Shown: piece by piece, positions 4,291-16,159 of the stretch
How the letters are laid out: every line of letters starts with the position of its first letter
How positions within the stretch are numbered: the first letter of the stretch is position 1
Assembly: GCA_000004695.1 (NCBI GenBank)
Contig: CM000154.2
Span: forward strand, 416,001 to 480,000
Source: Dictyostelium discoideum
Lineage: Eukaryota
Length of the DNA stretch: 64,000 bases
Direction of reading: 5' to 3'
Translations under genes and position numbers: made by a program
Notes under the pieces: model-generated
Seen by the model: only the letters and a program-made list of their open reading frames with translations
Told to the model about the DNA's origin: nothing
Database searches by the model: none

Positions 4291-5614
4291 TTATGGAATT
4301 GTAATTTTTGATTCATCAATATGATGACTATGAATTTGTTGTTTAGAATCTGAAACTCTCATCATTCTTGGTTTAAGGAAAGAATATTCTAGTGATACAT
4401 CAGTATCAATATCCAATTCATCAGCACAATGTAATGGCCAGAATGGGTCCCTTAAGAAAGCACGTGCCATCATAACAATATCACATTTATTGGTTTCTAA
4501 AATACTATCAGCTTCATTTGGTTTATTAATTAAACCAACGGCAGCAGTTTTTAAATTTGTATTTCTCTTTATTTGTTCTGCAAATTTAACTTGGTATAAT
4601 GGACCACCTTGAATTTTTTGATCAATTGAATTACCACCAGATGAGCAGTCAAGAATATCCTGTATATAATTATTAAAATTATTATTATTATTAGAATATA
4701 TATGTGATATAGTTAATTTATTGGAAAAACTTACAACACCAAGAGATTCAAGAATTTTAGCTAAACGAACAGTATCTTCTATATGCCAACCATCTTTCAC
4801 CCATTCTTCACAAGATAATCTTACTGATAATGGTTTTGACATTGGCCAAACGGTACGGACAGCTTTAACAATATCAATTAAGAATTTAATACGACCATTA
4901 AAATCACCACCATATTGATCGGTACGTTTATTTGAAGTTGGTGAAAGGAATGATGAAATTAAATAACCATGAGCACCATGAATTTCAATCATATCGAAAC
5001 CAATTTTTAAACATCTTTCAGCTGATTCCCTAAATTGATTAATAACAATATTGATATCATCTAATGTCATTTCTTTTGGCACTGTTGAACCTGGACCCCA
5101 TGAAATATCAGATGGTCCAATTGGTAACCATCCATGTCCATTTGTATCATCAATTGGAATACTTTCATTTCTTTTTCCTAAAAATGGTGGATGAGTTGAT
5201 GCTTTACGACCTGCATGAGCAATTTGAATTGATGTTTTCTATTTAAAATAATAAAAAAAAAAAATAAATAATTATTAGTTTTTAATTAATTAAATAAATA
5301 AAATAAAAAAAAAAAATAAAAAAAAAAAATATAAACATACACAATCAAATTGACGAATGAAATTAACAATTCTTTTTAATGGTTCCATTTGTTCATCTTT
5401 CCATAATCCTGCATCTGCATACGTAATTCTACCGATATCACTTACTGCAGTGGCCTCCATAACAATCATAGAGGCACCACCCCTTGCAAATGTACCATAA
5501 TGCACTAAATGGTAATCACTCATAAATCCATCAATACTAAAATATTTAATATTATTTTTTATTTTTATTTTAAAAAAATAAAAAAATAATTATAGATTAA
5601 TAAAAAGAAATTAT

Positions 5615-5645
<31 letters not shown>

Positions 5646-5842
5646 TTTAAAATTATACTTTACCTACTATATTGACACATTGGACTAACAACAATTCTAT
5701 TTTTTAATGTTAAATCTTTAACTGTTAATGGAGTGAAAATTTTTGGAGTTGATTGTGTAAGTTCAACTGGTTTACCAGAACTTCCATAATGTTTTGGTAA
5801 AGCATATGGATAAATAAATTCTTTAATCATATGTTGTTGCAT
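4291..5842 (-). CDS. NADH:flavin oxidoreductase, Old Yellow Enzyme / YqjM family. Exons 5664..5842, 5341..5536, 4735..5238, 4291..4659
   Basis: Spliced product ...[43 protein letters not shown]...[14 protein letters not shown]...[28 protein letters not shown]...LDCSSGG...[12 protein letters not shown] is collinear with B. subtilis YqjM and OYE proteins (SPMCMYSS, HAGRKA, HGAHGYL, SNHRTDEYGG). Three introns (GTAAAG, GTATGT, GTAAGT donors). Confidence 0.85.
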
Positions 5843-6253: not shown

Positions 6254-7224
6254 TTATTTTTTTAATGATAATTTCTTTTCAATTTCTTTAATTACTGAGA
6301 GAGCACAATCAGTGATTCTACTACCAGGACCAAAGATTGCAACTACACCATGTTGATAAAGGAAATCATAATCTTGAGGTGGAATAACACCACCACAAAT
6401 TACAGAGATATGAGAGGCATCCAATTTCTTTAATTCATCGATTAACTCTGGTACAAGTGTTTTATGACCAGCGGCTAAAGAGCTAACACCAACAACGTGG
6501 ACATCACTTTCAACGGCACTTTTAGCGACTTCTTTAGCGGTGGAAAAGAGTGGAGATATATCGACATCGAAACCCAAATCAGAGAAGCCAGAAGCAACCA
6601 CTTTAGCACCACGATCGTGGCCGTCTTGACCCATTTTGGCAACTAAAATTCTTGGTGGACGACCTTGTTCTTTTGTGAATTTTTTAACGGCATCAATGAC
6701 GGCATCGATTTCATTAGTTTTGCCATAGGCTGATTTGTAAGCACCACTAGCCAAAGAATGAGTTGGAACATAACGACCATAAACAACCTCCAAAGCATCA
6801 GAGATTTCACCAACGGTACAACGAGCACGAGCAGCATTGATTGACAATTCCAAGAGATTACCTTTACCAGTTTTAGCGGCTTCGGTGAGGGCTTCAAGAC
6901 ATTTCTTTGCCTCTTCAGAGTTACGAGTTGCCTTGATTCTCTTGAGACGTTCGATTTGAGCCTCTTTAACTTTTTTATTATCGATTGAAAGAATATCTAA
7001 TTTCTCCTCCTCTTTTAATTTATATTTATTTACACCAACGATAGTTTCGATGCCACTATCGATACGAGCTTGACGACTTGCAGCCGATTCTTCGATTCTA
7101 CGTTTTGGTAAACCCTCGGTGACAGCTTTAGCCATACCACCCATTTTTTCAACTTCTTCAATGATCTCCAAAGCTATGTAATCACGAAAATACCCAAAAA
7201 TATTACCAAACTTTGTCCATAAAC
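6254..7224 (-). CDS. mcmA: methylmalonyl-CoA mutase, C-terminal portion only (inter-domain linker plus cobalamin-binding domain). ORF 6254..7171 is solid; it may extend to an AG acceptor at about 7225
   Basis: [36 protein letters not shown]...[73 protein letters not shown]...[30 protein letters not shown] is about 60-70% identical to the C-terminal 300 aa of human MUT and E. coli ScpA. The roughly 430 aa N-terminal (beta/alpha)8 substrate-binding barrel is not encoded anywhere upstream in the window. Confidence 0.8.
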
Positions 7225-8019
7225 CTAAAAAACAGATATTTTTTTTTTATCTATTTTTAAAAAAAGATATACCTTTTTTTTTTAATTAAAAAAAATGTTT
7301 AGAAAAAAAAAAAAAAAAAAATTAAAAACCGAGATAATTTCTGTGATTCTCGAAAAAAATAATAAAAATAATAATACAAAAAGAAACTTCATGGAAAAAA
7401 AAGAAAAAAGAAAAAAGAAAATCTAATATCCTACACACGACAGTTCATAATTATAGTGCAATTGCAAAATAAAAAAATCGGTTAGGGGTGGATAATTAAA
7501 TAATCAAAAAAAAAAACAATTTTTAAAAAAAAAAATAAAAAAATTAAAAATTCGTGTGTGTAACTGACAACAAATCATTCTTAAAAAAAAAATAAAAAAT
7601 AAAAAATATCATTGCATGTGAATATGATAACTAAAAAAAAAAAACTTCCTTAATTAAAAATAAAAAAAAAACTCAAAGTCATTTAATTAATAATCATCTC
7701 AAATATAAACAAAATTTTAGTACTAAAATTATTATTATTATTATTTTTATTATAATAATTATAATAATAAAAAAAAAAAAAAAAAAAATTTTCATATTAT
7801 TTTATTTATATCTTTTATTTATTTTTATCTTTTTATTTTTATTATTAATTTTATAATTTATTTTCATTTCTTTTTTTTTTAGTTGATATATATTTTTTTA
7901 TTATTCATTTATGTCTACGGCTCACAAAAAAAAAAATTAAAAATAAAAAAAAAAATTAAAAATTAAAAAAAAAAAAAAAAAAAAAAATTAAAATAATTTT
8001 TTTTTTTTAATTTTTTATT

Positions 8020-8445
8020 TTAATTATTGACTCTTCTACTTTCTCTTTTGTTACTAACAGATGAAGTTTCGTTTGAAAATCTTTTGGTAAAATCAGCATC
8101 AGATTGTAATTGATTAGCTCTTTTTTTACCCGTTTTGTTTTTGTTTGATTGAGTTGTGATTCCACCATTATTGGAAGTTGTTGCAGCTTCATGTGTTGAT
8201 CTAACTTCGGTGGTAGAGTGCTCGATTGCTTTTTCAACTAGGTCATCTGTTGATTTTCTTTTGGTTATTTCGATATCCCTTTGCAATTTATTTTACTTGT
8301 CTCCGCCTCTCTAAATTCAACATTTACTTTGTACTTCAAATCATTTTTATCAATAGTAACTTCGTTAAATAATACACCAAATTCATCACTTTGATTGAAT
8401 TCAACATCTTTAAATTCCAAAAAAGCGACATCTTCGGGTGGAAAA
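8020..8445 (-). CDS. hypothetical protein; structure unresolved, two adjacent open frames
   Basis: Minus-strand frame A encodes PEDVAFLEFKDVEFNQSDEFGVLFNEVTIDKNDLKYKVNVEFREAETSK (8292..8445). Frame B encodes QRDIEITKRKSTDDLVEKAIEHSTTEVRSTHEAATTSNNGG...KRESRRVNN (8020..8283); its 'M' in the ORF track is a TTG. There is no convincing intron between them and no ATG for frame A. Confidence 0.25.
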
Positions 8446-8590
8446 ATAAAAAAATAAAAAAAAAAAATACTTTTTAATTTTTTTAATTTTTTTTTTATAT
8501 TTTTTTTTTTAATTTTTTTTTTTTATTTTATTTTTTAAAGTTTCGAACAATTATATATAAAAAAAAAGTAAAAGATATCCCTTCGGTCAA

Positions 8591-8605
8591 TTAAATAATA
8601 GTAAT

Positions 8606-8649
<44 letters not shown>

Positions 8650-8651
8650 TA

Positions 8652-8741
<90 letters not shown>
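8591..8741. repeat. (AAT)n microsatellite, about 50 units
   Basis: Uninterrupted aataataat run. Confidence 0.95.
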
Positions 8742-8745
<4 letters not shown>

Positions 8746-9126
8746 CTTAAATATACAAAAAAAAAATAAAAAAATAAAAAAATAAAAAAAATAAAAAAAA
8801 AAAAATAGAATGAAATGAAATAAAATAAAATAAAAAAAAGAAATACAGAATTTCTTTAAAGAAACTTATTTCGAAATTGTTTAAACAATCATACAGTTTA
8901 AAATTAAATAAATTGTTTTAAACCACCACTTTTTTTGAACACATGAAAATAAATAAGAAATAAAAATAAAAAGATAAAAAAAGATTTTTTTTTTTTTTTT
9001 ATTTTATAATTATTCTTGTCATCAGTATTGTTACTGTAATTAATCCCATGAGTTTTTTTTTATTATTTTTAATTCTTTTATATTTGAGATGATTATTAAT
9101 TAAATGACTTTGAGTTTTTTTTTTAT

Positions 9127-9312
9127 TTTTCTATGCCCAAAATTACCATATTAATTTCGGCAGCCATATTAATTTCAGCCTAAAATAGTTGGTCTGTGCA
9201 TGCCAAAATTAATATGGCTGCTGAAATTAATGTGGTAATTCTAGCAGACATAAGTCCCATGCCAAAATTACCATATTAATTTCAGCAGCCATATTAATTT
9301 TGGCATGGGACA
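9127..9312. repeat. three copies of a roughly 45-bp unit in alternating orientation (A+, B-, C+); copy C is itself a near-perfect palindrome
   Basis: 9133..9180 ATGCCCAAAATTACCATATTAATTTCGGCAGCCATATTAATTTCAGCC; 9199..9240 is its reverse complement; 9257..9310 CCCATGCCAAAATTACCATATTAATTTCAGCAGCCATATTAATTTTGGCATGGG has 15-bp self-complementary ends. Confidence 0.7.
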
Positions 9313-9798
9313 ATTGATGAAAAAAAAAAAAAAAAAAACAGAACTTCAAAAATATTTAAATCAAAGCAAAAAATAAATAATAATAAAAAAAAAAATTTGT
9401 TATAAAAATATGATTAAATTTCAAAAAATAATGATAATAAAAAAAAAATTAAAGAGAAACTCATATATAAAACAGATTCAAATTATCGAATAAACTTTTT
9501 TTTAAATTAAAAATAAAAATAAACATAATCTTTTATTTGCTTAAAAAAATAATATAAAAAAAAAAAAAAAAATAATTATTAAATAAAAAAAAGAATGGTT
9601 TTTTAAATGTCTTTATTTTCACTTTTTTATTTTTTTTATTTTATTATTTATTTTATTTTATTTTATTTTATTATTTATTTTATTATTTAATTTATTATTT
9701 ATTTTATTTCATTCCATTTCATTTCATTTTAATTTATTTTTATTTCTTTTTTTAAAATTTGATTCAAGTGAATTATCTTTGGAATGATTGAAGTCCTG

Positions 9799-9839
<41 letters not shown>

Positions 9840-9913
9840 AAAAAAAAAAAGAACTGAAAAATCAGATTTTTTTATTTATATTTTGTGAAACTGCAATTTT
9901 AAAATCTAAATTC

Positions 9914-9954
<41 letters not shown>

Positions 9955-10002
9955 GTGCAGAAGCGATAAAAAAAAAAAATAAAAAAAAAATAATATCCCC
10001 AT

Positions 10003-10033
<31 letters not shown>

Positions 10034-10484
10034 AGTAATTTTGGTTGAAATATTTAAAAAATTTTAGATATTTTTATTTTGGTTGGAAAAATAGAAAAAA
10101 AAAAAAATTATTTAAAACTCATTGTGCAACAACTATTTTAATCAAGATCCATCTCCCCAAATTATCGACAATTTCTTTTCTTTTCTTTTTTTATCGTAAA
10201 TTTTTTTTTAAAAATAGCAACATATTTTTTATAAAAAAAAAAAAGAAAAAAAAAAAGAAAAATAAATACCAAACTTTTTCTTAATTCCCAAGGCTTTATT
10301 TTTGCCTAAATCATTTGTTTTATAATATTTGCAGGCCAGTCCAACTGACCAATGAAATTAAAATATTTTTTCTGAAAATATGATTAGATTTCTAAAAAAA
10401 AAAAAAATGTTTAAAAATTGTTTGTTCACTTTCAAAATAAAATCTTTTTCAACCACGTTTTTTATTTTATTTAATTTTTTTTTT

Positions 10485-10672
10485 ATAAACAAAATTTTCT
10501 CCAATTCTCAAGAACAATGTGGTTGTGATTGGATATTTTCCACCCAAATGCATGATGGCTTTCTGAAAGTCTTGCATATTTATAAAAAACAGACAAAAAT
10601 TTGGGTTAAAATTTGAGCAAATTAGAATTTCAAATAATAAAATAGAGCCAATAAAAAAATAGTATGGCGTCT
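10485..10672 (-). other. orphan exon-like ORF with no start codon; ends at a stop
   Basis: Minus strand, after a TAG/CTATAG: TPYYFFIGSILLFEILICSNFNPNFCLFFINMQDFQKAIMHLGGKYPITTTLFLRIGENFVYKKKN*. The codon usage is Dictyostelium-like. No upstream exon was found. Confidence 0.25.
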
Positions 10673-10995
10673 ATAGAAGCCCTCAAAATATGTGGACATA
10701 CCAAAAAGGGAAATTTTTTACTATAGAAAATAATTAATTTTAATTTTTTGTAAAATTTTTTTGTATAAAAATAATTTTTTTTTTTTTTTTTTTTTTTCAT
10801 TCCAAATTAAACTCAAGTATTTAAATAAATCAAATAAATCAAATAAATCAAATAAAAAATCAATTTAAAATGAATCAAGTAAATAAAAAAAATAAAAAAA
10901 AATTATTTTCCAAACATTTTTATTTTTTTTTAAAATACTAATCACAATAATATTTTTTTTTTTTCTTTTTTTTTTTTCTCTTTTTTAAATTATAG

Positions 10996-11091
10996 AACTA
11001 TAGCACCAACACCACCATCAACAACAGCACTGAGGATCTCCACAACAATGACAATACTCACAACAATGAGAGTACCTACAATGAAGATGCC

Positions 11092-11180
<89 letters not shown>

Positions 11181-11627
11181 CGACGACGACAATCAAAACA
11201 ATAATTGCACAATGTGTCTTTCAGATAAAATGTGCTTTTCCTGTAAGATTATGAAAATTAGGCACGAAGCAGCTATCAAAATTTTTTATAATAGTTTAGG
11301 CTTAAGTCCGCCCCCTGCTGCCAATACTGGTTTTGCTAATGGTGGCACTGGCGTTGCCGATGACCATCCTGATGTTGAAAATTCCTCTGATATTTTTTAA
11401 ACGAATCGGCTGGTGTTGATAATCAACCCTCTACTGCCAATGAATATGATGATGATGATAGTTTCGATGGTGAATCCTATGTCTCTTTATCTGAATATGA
11501 TTCAGAAGATAGAAGGATGTTCATAGCCCAAGATGCTGAATATTATGCCAATGCTCCTTTTGAAGATCTACGAGGTGAGACCATTCATAAATGTCTTTTT
11601 AACCTTGATTCATATTTTGATTATTAT

Positions 11628-11685
<58 letters not shown>

Positions 11686-11786
11686 GAACTACCACTACAA
11701 CTACCACTACAACTACAACTTCATCGTCCAATAATTATAATAATAGTGATAGTGATAATGATGATGATGATATTAACAATAATTAA
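10996..11786 (+). CDS. Asn/Thr-rich hypothetical ORF with an apparent +2 frameshift; possibly a degenerate or transposon-derived gene
   Basis: Frame 1 (10996..11400): NYSTNTTINNSTEDLHNNDNTHNNESTYNEDA(N)n NDDDNQNNNCTMCLSDKMCFSCKIMKIRHEAAIKIFYNSLGLSPPPAANTGFANGGTGVADDHPDVENSSDIF*. Frame 0 (11400..11786): NESAGVDNQPSTANEYDDDDSFDGESYVSLSEYDSEDRRMFIAQDAEYYANAPFEDLRGETIHKCLFNLDSYFDYYY(N)n(T)n...*. Codons CCG CCC GCC GGC CTG GAC are frequent in 11270..11480, which is unusual for this genome. (CAA)n at 11087..11192. Confidence 0.35.
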
Positions 11787-12198
11787 TATTATCCATAGTT
11801 GGAATAATAGTTTTAATGTAATTGATACCAAGATTGGTGGAAAGACTAATTGCCGATGAACTTTTCCAATCATCCTTTTTACACATAAAGAAAACTACTG
11901 GTTAAAAATTAATTTTAAAAAAAAAAAAAAATAAAAAAAAAATAAATAAATAAAAAAAAAATTAACTATAGAATTTTTTAAACATTTTGTTTTTATGATT
12001 TATTTATATTTATTTATTTTCAAAGTAATAATAATAATAATAATAATATTAAATAAATAAATGACATCTAATAAAAATATATAGGTATATCGAATATAAC
12101 TTTTCAATTTGTCACATTAATTTTGATCGTTTTTTATTTTTTTTTTTCCCACTTTTTTATTTTTTTTTTTTTTTATTTTTTCATTTTTATTTTTTAAA

Positions 12199-12233
<35 letters not shown>

Positions 12234-12286: not shown

Positions 12287-12482
12287 TTATTTACAAAAAA
12301 TTCCAATTGATAAAGATACACATAAAATAAAACTTAATTTTGCAGTTTTTAAGTCCCAATGTTTATAATTTCCATTTTTTGTATCCTTAAAAATATTATA
12401 TAAAGAGGTAATTGTGATTATAGTTGGTAAATTTAAATAAATATTATTATAAATAATTGATAATATAAATAAATAAAAATAA

Positions 12483-12527
<45 letters not shown>

Positions 12528-13322
12528 GACAAGAAATTCCCAATTAGTTTTTTTTTTTTTATTTTTTTTTTTTTATAATTAAATATATACATACAAAAAA
12601 TAAATTGAAAAATAAATTGAATATGATAAATTTTCACCTATTATTATTGGAATTGTAATTATATTTGATATTTTATCATTTTTTAAATCTCTAATATTAT
12701 TGGAAAAGATAATGGTGCAACAAGAGATAGTTAAGATCATTGAATAATTAAAAATTTCATTAAAATAATCTTTAAATAATTGTATATTTTGAAAATAAAT
12801 TGGAAATGGAACAATTGAAAACAAATTGAAAGATGCACTAATTTCGCCCAATGCTCTATATTTAAATGATATTGGTGGAGCTGTATAGAAATGTGATATA
12901 AATGATATAGTAATTGTAATTGGTAAAACATGGTAAATGGTTTCATTGAATTGTAAATTACAATTAACTAATAAAGTAATCAATGAAATTAAAACACCCA
13001 AATAGGTAATTTTAATAAAAAATTCTATATCATTTAGTGTTATTTTAATTGAATTTTGAAATAATGTTCTATCAGCTGACGTTTCTTTTTTATCCAATCC
13101 ATTTATAAAATCATAATAGGTATTTACTAAATTTGAAATATTATTTAAAAAATATAATACTAAAAAACTTAAACAAAATCTAAAAATATTGAATCCATTA
13201 CCCAAATTTACTTCATTTTTTATGAAAAATGATAAACTTATTAAACTTCCTGATATAAGAAATGATGTTGACCAAATTCTTGTTGAATTAATATATTTAT
13301 AGATAAAATATGATAATTCCAT
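12287..13322 (-). CDS. UbiA-family prenyltransferase, UBIAD1/MenA-like. Exons 12595..13322 and 12287..12485
   Basis: ...[40 protein letters not shown]... matches the human UBIAD1 motif [25 protein letters not shown] (N-x3-D-x5-D prenyl-diphosphate site). It is a polytopic membrane protein. GTATGT donor; the 3' exon encodes ...LNLPTIITITSLYNIFKDTKNGNYKHWDLKTAKLSFILCVSLSIGIFCK*. Confidence 0.75.
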
Positions 13323-13536: not shown

Positions 13537-13636
13537 NNNNNNNNNNNNNNNNNNNNNNNNNNNNNNNNNNNNNNNNNNNNNNNNNNNNNNNNNNNNNNNN
13601 NNNNNNNNNNNNNNNNNNNNNNNNNNNNNNNNNNNN
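13537..13636. other. assembly gap (100 N)
   Basis: A run of n characters. Confidence 0.99.
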
Positions 13637-14206: not shown

Positions 14207-14308
14207 ATAATAAAAAAATAATAAAAAAAAAAATTTAAAAAAATTTAATTTAAAAAAAAAAAAAATTGGGTTCTAAATTTGGTATTTTTACCGTACCCCA
14301 CCAATTTT

Positions 14309-14348
<40 letters not shown>

Positions 14349-14826
14349 CCCAGAACACCCCCCCCATCAAATTTTACACCTAAAAATAGATGAGTGTGTG
14401 AGTGTGTGTATGTTTGGGTTTATATGTACATATATATTTTTAACCAAAAGAAAAAAAATAATTCATTGAACACACCCAAATAAGATGATTATAATCAAAA
14501 AGTTAATTTTTTTTGCCAATAACATATAAACTTGGGGGTTGGGATTATATATATTGAATCAAATAACATTTATTTTTTTTTATTTTTTTTTTTTTCCAAC
14601 TCAAAACTAAATAATTAAATTCAAATAAAAAAAAATAAAAAAAAAAAAATAATATGATATATATGTCAAAAATTAATGTCAGATATACAAAAAAAATATA
14701 TATATTAATAAAAAATAAAAATAAAAATAAAAAAAAAATTAAAAAAAAAAATAAAGAAAAAAATTAATTTTTTGATATTTTACAATTATCAATTGTTTAT
14801 TTTTATTTTTTTCCTTTTAAAGGTTT

Positions 14827-16077: not shown

Positions 16078-16159
16078 TGTAAGCTAAGGGATTCGAACCC
16101 TTGTATCAATGATATTGCAGCCTTAATGCAACCCCTTAGACCAGCTCGGGCAAGCTTAC
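16078..16159 (-). tRNA. tRNA-Leu (anticodon AAG), class II with long variable arm
   Basis: Reverse complement GTAAGCTTGCCCGAGCTGGTCTAAGGGGTTGCATTAAGGCTGCAATATCATTGATACAAGGGTTCGAATCCCTTAGCTTACA. It has a 7-bp acceptor stem, a D arm, an anticodon stem TTGCA/TGCAA with loop TTAAGGC, a 13-nt variable stem-loop and T-loop GGTTCGAATCC. Confidence 0.85.

Follow-up and report, generated by a model that had tools for sequence, protein, structure and literature searches.

DDB_G0287563 of Dictyostelium discoideum AX4 is very probably a recent, functionally dead 3' remnant of an ordinary full-length methylmalonyl-CoA mutase (MCM) gene of the mitochondrial type. Its homology to MCM ends at a sharp junction, an intact MCM gene occupies the same place in close relatives, and the remnant is nearly identical to the corresponding part of those genes. 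We infer that the event was recent and that the remnant, which is unable to catalyse the mutase reaction, is becoming a pseudogene.

Results

The window, by which we mean the whole 64-kb stretch of AX4 chromosome 5 that was analysed, carries DDB_G0287563 (XP_637192.1, UniProt Q54K63, 296 aa) as a minus-strand ORF at 6257-7174, with the stop codon at 6254-6256. The original prediction had described this ORF as the inter-domain linker and B12-binding domain of MCM from residue ~430 onwards, and the similarity searches agreed. Pfam detected PF01642 at profile positions 384-512 of 512 (E 2.6e-36), which is the last quarter of the MM_CoA_mutase model, followed C-terminally by the B12-binding domain PF02310 (E 4.9e-20). 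In a phmmer search against the PDB, the ORF aligned without gaps to residues 431-736 of human MUT (E 3e-119) at ~62% identity, and it represents codons ~435-740 of the full-length orthologue, that is, the linker and the B12-binding domain. Aligned to human MUT, the B12-binding motifs DxHxxG (His-on), SSLAAGH and GGVIP are unbroken. Sequence comparison confirmed that the remnant is strongly MCM-derived and that the ORF is real.

The previously given span of 6254-7224 was correct as to MCM identity but not as to its upper limit, since the MCM homology starts at an Ala codon at 7174/7175. On the basis of Pfam and PDB matches, identity to sister species and colinearity, we place the remnant at 6254-7175 of the minus strand. 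It is preceded by 17 codons of non-MCM sequence that are fortuitously in frame (7176-7249, minus strand), as seen from the translation, with a closing TAA at 7247-7249. No significant barrel similarity was found in the 17 upstream in-frame codons (7175-7225; shuffle test, p ~0.22-0.26). A collapsed barrel in these codons was considered after MAFFT had spread them over the RPWT and GDIFSY motifs, and was rejected because the shuffle test attributed this placement to chance.

The first in-frame ATG of the remnant (7142-7144, minus strand; MGGMAKAV...) is an internal Met codon in the intact gene, and the annotated AX4 protein of 296 aa begins with it. For a second D. discoideum assembly, an automatic model (P0121, KAM9946868.1) predicts a protein of 326 aa, MNCR+LWTKF..., from a 10-nt first exon (ATGAACTGTC; 7439-7448, minus strand) spliced to the AG at 7225-7226. 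This model keeps 83 of the 88 columns with >=98% conservation, and three of the five altered columns are its non-homologous N-terminal residues. Substitutions of this lineage in the remnant are also present in the intact enzymes of sister species. The remnant has neither a mitochondrial presequence nor the native start codon; the proteins of relatives begin with MNLLRSTK...KRTFCSKLL, a region missing from the window.

We searched the window for the rest of the enzyme by tblastn, using six MCM queries, short words and E-values up to 100. Among the queries were the full-length MCM of Conidiobolus coronatus (66%, the closest of the named homologues) and a Dictyostelium MCM from a sister species. 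The (beta/alpha)8 barrel (PF01642 ~1-380) was not found on either strand of the 64 kb, bearing out the earlier statement that it is missing upstream, and full-length MCMs matched only 7174-6278. There was also no gene for a large-subunit partner in the window and no barrel at the locus of the second assembly.

Relatives were identified through the 90%-identity cluster of the neighbouring old-yellow-enzyme (OYE) gene, and their loci were compared with the window. The OYE-type NADH:flavin oxidoreductase gene (4291-5842, minus strand, located from ORFs) served as downstream synteny anchor; the PF00724 gene adjoins MCM at loci L001 and L004-L009. Directly upstream of OYE, a full-length MCM gene (740-741 aa, PF01642+PF02310) is present in D. 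firmibasis, D. citrinum, D. dimigraforme and 'D. cf. discoideum', where Band_7, PNO1, alpha-mannosidase and CDO genes come next on the downstream side, ordered as in the window. In two divergent isolates that carry the label D. discoideum, a full-length MCM likewise stands beside OYE (KAM9956112.1, 741 aa; KAM9969352.1, 728 aa). A fused MCM is carried by six of the six close relatives, and the split architecture occurs in AX4 and the second assembly only. The remnant shares 96.4-98.7% amino acid identity with the last 306 residues of the sister-species MCMs and differs from the nearest intact genes at one or two residues. In D. purpureum and Polysphondylium violaceum, synteny was not conserved around the OYE orthologue and MCM sequence was absent from these neighbourhoods.

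A UbiA-family prenyltransferase gene (12290-13322, minus strand; ORF 12579-13322), seemingly intact in AX4, provided the upstream anchor; it was assigned from L001 4155-5184, which carries PF01040, and by tblastn of P0243. Of the divergent isolates, the one assembled most contiguously (JBTAPF010000012.1) has the genes in the order thioredoxin, UbiA, a gene of 3233 aa, MetE-like (Meth_synt_2), alpha/beta-hydrolase, MCM and OYE. The 380-aa UbiA model of this isolate (L010 10001-12579) joins the UbiA exon to an unrelated Ser/Asn-rich exon 1.4 kb downstream, which falls in the interval missing from AX4; the model has probably merged two genes. The same isolate carries retrotransposon genes (RVT_1, RNase H, integrase, zf-CCHC) at L010 1-6035, ~1 kb beyond the start of colinearity. 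They sit near the position that matches a tRNA-Leu(AAG) gene at 16078-16159 of the window, as expected for tRNA-targeted Dictyostelium elements.

Comparison of these loci defined the two edges of the rearrangement. In six of six relatives, colinearity with the window runs from position 1 to exactly 7175, and nothing is common past this point. Base-by-base comparison with L008, L009, L007 and L005, together with blastn colinearity from 7175/7174 in all six relatives, placed junction A, a sharp end of homology, at 7175-7176. The sequence at the junction is ...GATTACAT|AGCTTTGGAG in AX4 and ...GGAGAAGAA|AGCTTTGGAG in the relatives; over a longer stretch, the AX4 sequence is ...TTTTCGTGATTACAT|AGCTTTGGAGATCATTG... 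and the intact sequence ...GAATTGGAGAAGAA|AGCTTTGGAG... In the relatives, the codons for ...LTNELEKK and ALEIIEE... meet at this point, well inside a long exon without interruption. The AG at 7225 therefore does not mark an ancestral intron end, and its reading as an ancestral intron acceptor has to be abandoned. A truncated pseudogene and a rearranged gene had been listed as separate options; given the mid-exon cut and the full-length gene in relatives, both apply together.

Colinearity with the relatives resumes at junction B (12185-12230), which lies within a (TTA)n/poly-T tract ~100 bp beyond UbiA (L010 9781-11113 matches window 13536-12185). Between the junctions AX4 has 5.0 kb (7176-12184), compared with ~18.75 kb in JBTAPF010000012.1 (record positions 458087-476838). 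The interval absent from AX4 holds MCM codons 1-434, the alpha/beta-hydrolase gene, the MetE-like gene and the 3233-aa gene, as seen when 7176-12184 is compared with L008 1-11434 and L010 11114-22579; the latter three genes were not found in the 64-kb window. The Meth_synt_2 gene resembles cobalamin-independent methionine synthase, and in D. citrinum the 3233-aa protein has MOR2-PAG1_N and RGS domains. Since the outer flanks retain their order and orientation, the event was a local replacement rather than an inversion or translocation. Candidate mechanisms are a deletion with filler insertion and a recombination between copies of a mobile element that left one copy.

The segment specific to the AX4/ACTFIT lineage (7176-12184) is AT-rich and repeat-rich, contains small ORFs only and is near-identical in the second assembly (L001). 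Neither blastn nor tblastx related it to the replaced interval or to any of the other loci compared, and its ORFs matched no Pfam family above threshold. An element bounded by inverted repeats, noted earlier upstream of the ORF, is indeed present. A repeat search and self-blast located its left arm at 7656-7828 (73% against 9130-8943) and its right arm at 8943-9130. The arms are ~180 nt long, 73-89% complementary, and flank ~1.1 kb with small ORFs (8007-8420). Directly after the inverted repeat follows a palindromic block of short 'aaattaatatgg' repeats (ccaaaattaatatggctgctgaaattaatatgg...; 9137-9307), in which self-blast aligned 9199-9307 with its reverse complement (87.5%) and 9137-9175 with 9262-9300 (97%). 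The inverted-repeat element as a whole (7656-9307) matched no Pfam family, and the window yielded no further copy of it; a mobile element of the non-autonomous type is a possible interpretation. Further upstream, a long perfect triplet repeat (10990-11254), which can be read as poly-V, poly-C and poly-T in ORFs of both strands, lies within a 137-aa gene of the second assembly.

A mis-join or gap in the AX4 reference could in principle hide the 5' exons of an intact gene. The region is extremely AT-rich and repetitive, and 6.3 kb upstream of the remnant it contains a run of 100 N (13537-13636), the only gap in the window. The second D. discoideum assembly (GCA_054883475.1, locus L001), which is independent and at chromosome level, shows colinearity with the window and has an identical CDS and an identical upstream junction, and the gap is represented there by 391 bp (L001 3550-3940) in which MCM sequence is absent. 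The N-terminal exons that a corrected assembly might have supplied were looked for in GCA_054883475.1, where the same truncated structure was found. We conclude from this agreement that the truncation is not an assembly artefact, a possibility to which we attach a practically negligible probability. The 391-bp fill is located at or beside the thioredoxin gene, and mismatches between AX4 and L001 are bunched at the gap edges. Outside these edges, AX4 and L001 differ by ~5 clean substitutions in 13.4 kb if a patch at 14234-14350, possibly an alignment artefact, is set aside.

We then estimated the age of the truncation from substitutions. Between the AX4 remnant and the two nearest intact genes, pS was 0.08-0.09 and pN 0.001-0.003; for an OYE exon of the same pairs, pS was 0.11. 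Within-species diversity of D. discoideum is ~0.003, and cryptic species close to D. discoideum have been described (bioRxiv 10.1101/2025.10.22.684067). Because pS is far above this value, we take the two divergent 'D. discoideum' isolates to be sister lineages and not conspecific with AX4. At remnant codons 2, 20, 75, 97, 161 and 229, AX4 shares the site with only one of the divergent isolates (6254-7174 compared with L008 and L009); such sharing despite ~9% synonymous divergence suggests incomplete lineage sorting or past recombination.

Polarised by outgroup, the AX4 branch of the remnant shows six synonymous changes, no nonsynonymous change and one ambiguous site, and the remnant has no frameshift or stop. 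The barrel of the relatives is under very strong purifying selection (pN/pS 0.005-0.027), and the ancestral MCM gene was therefore functional. If the remnant had been neutral throughout, ~20 nonsynonymous changes would be expected over the whole AX4 branch. With none observed, any neutral period since the cut occupies at most ~15-23% of this short branch. The truncation is therefore probably young, as also follows from the near-identity of the remnant to the intact orthologues, and its youth would account for the clean ORF, the intact B12 motifs and the normal codon usage. The codon usage of a well-expressed host gene had been remarked on before; the usage is indeed good, but it is explained by the young truncation and is no sign of expression. 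As a pattern of sequence change, six synonymous and no nonsynonymous substitutions would fit a very recent event and continued constraint alike.

Continued constraint would be expected if the remnant still served as a cobalamin-binding protein in its own right, with transcription beginning in the new AT-rich DNA upstream of it. Its translation would start at the internal ATG or in the 10-nt exon, and the product would bind (adenosyl)cobalamin in the cytosol and hand it over, for example to class II ribonucleotide reductase. Such a protein would agree with the unbroken ORF and motifs, with the absence of nonsynonymous changes against six synonymous ones on the AX4 branch, and with the spliced 326-aa gene in the automatic annotation of the second assembly; moreover, other D. 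discoideum enzymes use AdoCbl (PMC3605638), and isolated MCM B12 domains are stable enough for solved structures (8dpb, 2yxb). A very young remnant, however, predicts the same pattern. The 5' edge is a rearrangement junction within an exon and no gene boundary, the architecture is limited to AX4 and the second assembly while every relative has the fused gene, and a free MCM B12 domain occurs in no known eukaryotic system. We therefore regard retention as unlikely. In a more specific form, the 5-kb DNA would have supplied a new promoter and first exon that captured the remnant, which was then kept as a cytosolic AdoCbl-binding protein, for example as a B12 buffer or for delivery to class II ribonucleotide reductase; this we consider quite unlikely. 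An IcmB-like stand-alone B12 subunit, the third option of the original prediction, finds no support: the split is not conserved, a partner gene is lacking nearby, the 5' edge is a rearrangement junction, and start codon and presequence have been lost.

A second alternative is gene fission, in which the barrel half was relocated in the AX4 genome and is expressed separately, giving a two-subunit MCM as in archaeal MCM and bacterial Icm/Hcm. Working split mutases are known (4r3u, 2yxb), the break lies near the structural boundary between barrel and linker (~human residue 431), and MCM has been counted as present in D. discoideum (PMC2667541, PMC3605638). Against this, the flanks are unchanged in order and orientation and the interval between them is replaced, which is the signature of a loss. 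The remnant has no targeting peptide and keeps ~130 residues (PF01642 384-512) which the split enzymes known so far carry on their large subunit; 2yxb and 4r3u_C, both small subunits, align to residues 189-318 only.

Protein collections were also consulted for a barrel encoded elsewhere. The best 120 matches of a barrel query were saturated by fungal and animal MCMs (75-89% identity), which is uninformative on a D. discoideum barrel. A word-indexed homology search missed the full-length MCMs of sister species, which are 97-99% identical and present in the collection, and its negatives therefore carry little weight. The 90%-identity clusters of the full-length MCM and of the adjacent hydrolase contain other sampled Dictyostelium assemblies and no member from AX4 or the second assembly, and the OYE cluster contains both of the latter. 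At the level of sequence collections, this absence argues for loss over relocation. In addition, Orlowska et al. 2021 list only the DDB_G0287563 fragment as MCM for D. discoideum (PMC8085122); the entry for D. purpureum MCM is XP_003285100.1. An intact barrel relocated elsewhere in AX4 is excluded by these observations only indirectly, and we judge fission to be highly improbable.

Discussion

Our findings suggest the following course of events for the remnant of the MCM gene. In the AX4 lineage, a stretch of ~18.75 kb reaching from the UbiA side into the middle of the MCM coding exon would have been lost, and 5.0 kb of unrelated, repeat-rich DNA would have taken its place. The loss would have removed the start codon of MCM, the mitochondrial presequence, the N-terminal arm and the entire substrate-binding barrel. 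Lacking residues 1-434, and with them the barrel, the N-terminal arm, the native start and the presequence, the remnant cannot be a mutase. Translation from the internal ATG at 7144 would give a cytosolic protein of 296 aa, consisting of linker and B12-binding domain without a targeting signal, which might still bind cobalamin. A MeaB/MMAA homologue of AX4 (XP_645706.1) is annotated in a table of Orlowska et al. 2021 (PMC8085122), and its presence fits either a very recent loss of MCM or some remaining use. In the MeaB column of that table (PMC8085122, Table S2), the organism labels of dictyostelids appear to be one row off from the accessions: XP_003284920.1 is labelled D. discoideum and XP_645706.1 Acytostelium.

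AX4 is the reference strain of the D. discoideum field. If it has only the barrel-less remnant, it would most likely be without the B12-dependent route from propionyl-CoA to succinyl-CoA that its sister lineages have. This would affect metabolic reconstructions, the B12 needs in defined media and the use of AX4 as a model of methylmalonic aciduria (MMAA, MMAB, MMADHC). As the same event removed three other genes, the difference between AX4 and its nearest relatives goes beyond MCM.

B12 surveys count MCM as present in D. discoideum (PMC2667541, PMC3605638, PMC8085122), and the fragment described here is apparently the sole basis of that count. The statement of these surveys would need a caveat for the reference strain; general interest in the case is modest, and its practical relevance is to the metabolism and B12 biology of Dictyostelium. 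Neither DDB_G0287563 nor a statement that Dictyostelium MCM is truncated turned up in the full texts open to searching. The gene is truncated in comparison with intact syntenic orthologues and has a sharp breakpoint within coding sequence, which places it among young gene remnants. These are a known kind, of which the present case appears to be undescribed.

Compared with full-length mitochondrial MCM (human MUT, PDB 2xij/8gju; orthologues P0379-P0385), the remnant has the same linker and B12-binding domain with DxHxxG, SxL and GG motifs, and it lies at the same chromosomal position beside OYE as the MCM of sister species, with 96-99% identity. In contrast to these enzymes, it is without residues 1-434 and the entire (beta/alpha)8 barrel, so that neither substrate binding nor catalysis would be expected of it. 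The small subunits of split mutases (IcmB, HcmB 4r3u_C, archaeal MCM 2yxb, MutS/GlmS) are likewise separate polypeptides with a Rossmann-like cobalamin-binding domain. They are, however, ~130-160 aa long, consist of the domain only and are encoded by conserved separate genes with a paired large-subunit gene, whereas the remnant has 296 aa, keeps ~130 residues of PF01642, has no partner gene nearby and is found in one very recent lineage. The closest parallel in kind is offered by young unitary pseudogenes such as the strain-variable tgr pseudogenes of AX4 (bioRxiv 10.1101/2025.10.22.684067), which show the same lineage-specific partial loss with undecayed sequence. Unlike the tgr pseudogenes, which belong to a fast-turnover family, the DDB_G0287563 remnant stems from a conserved core metabolic enzyme that was lost, and it is annotated as protein-coding.
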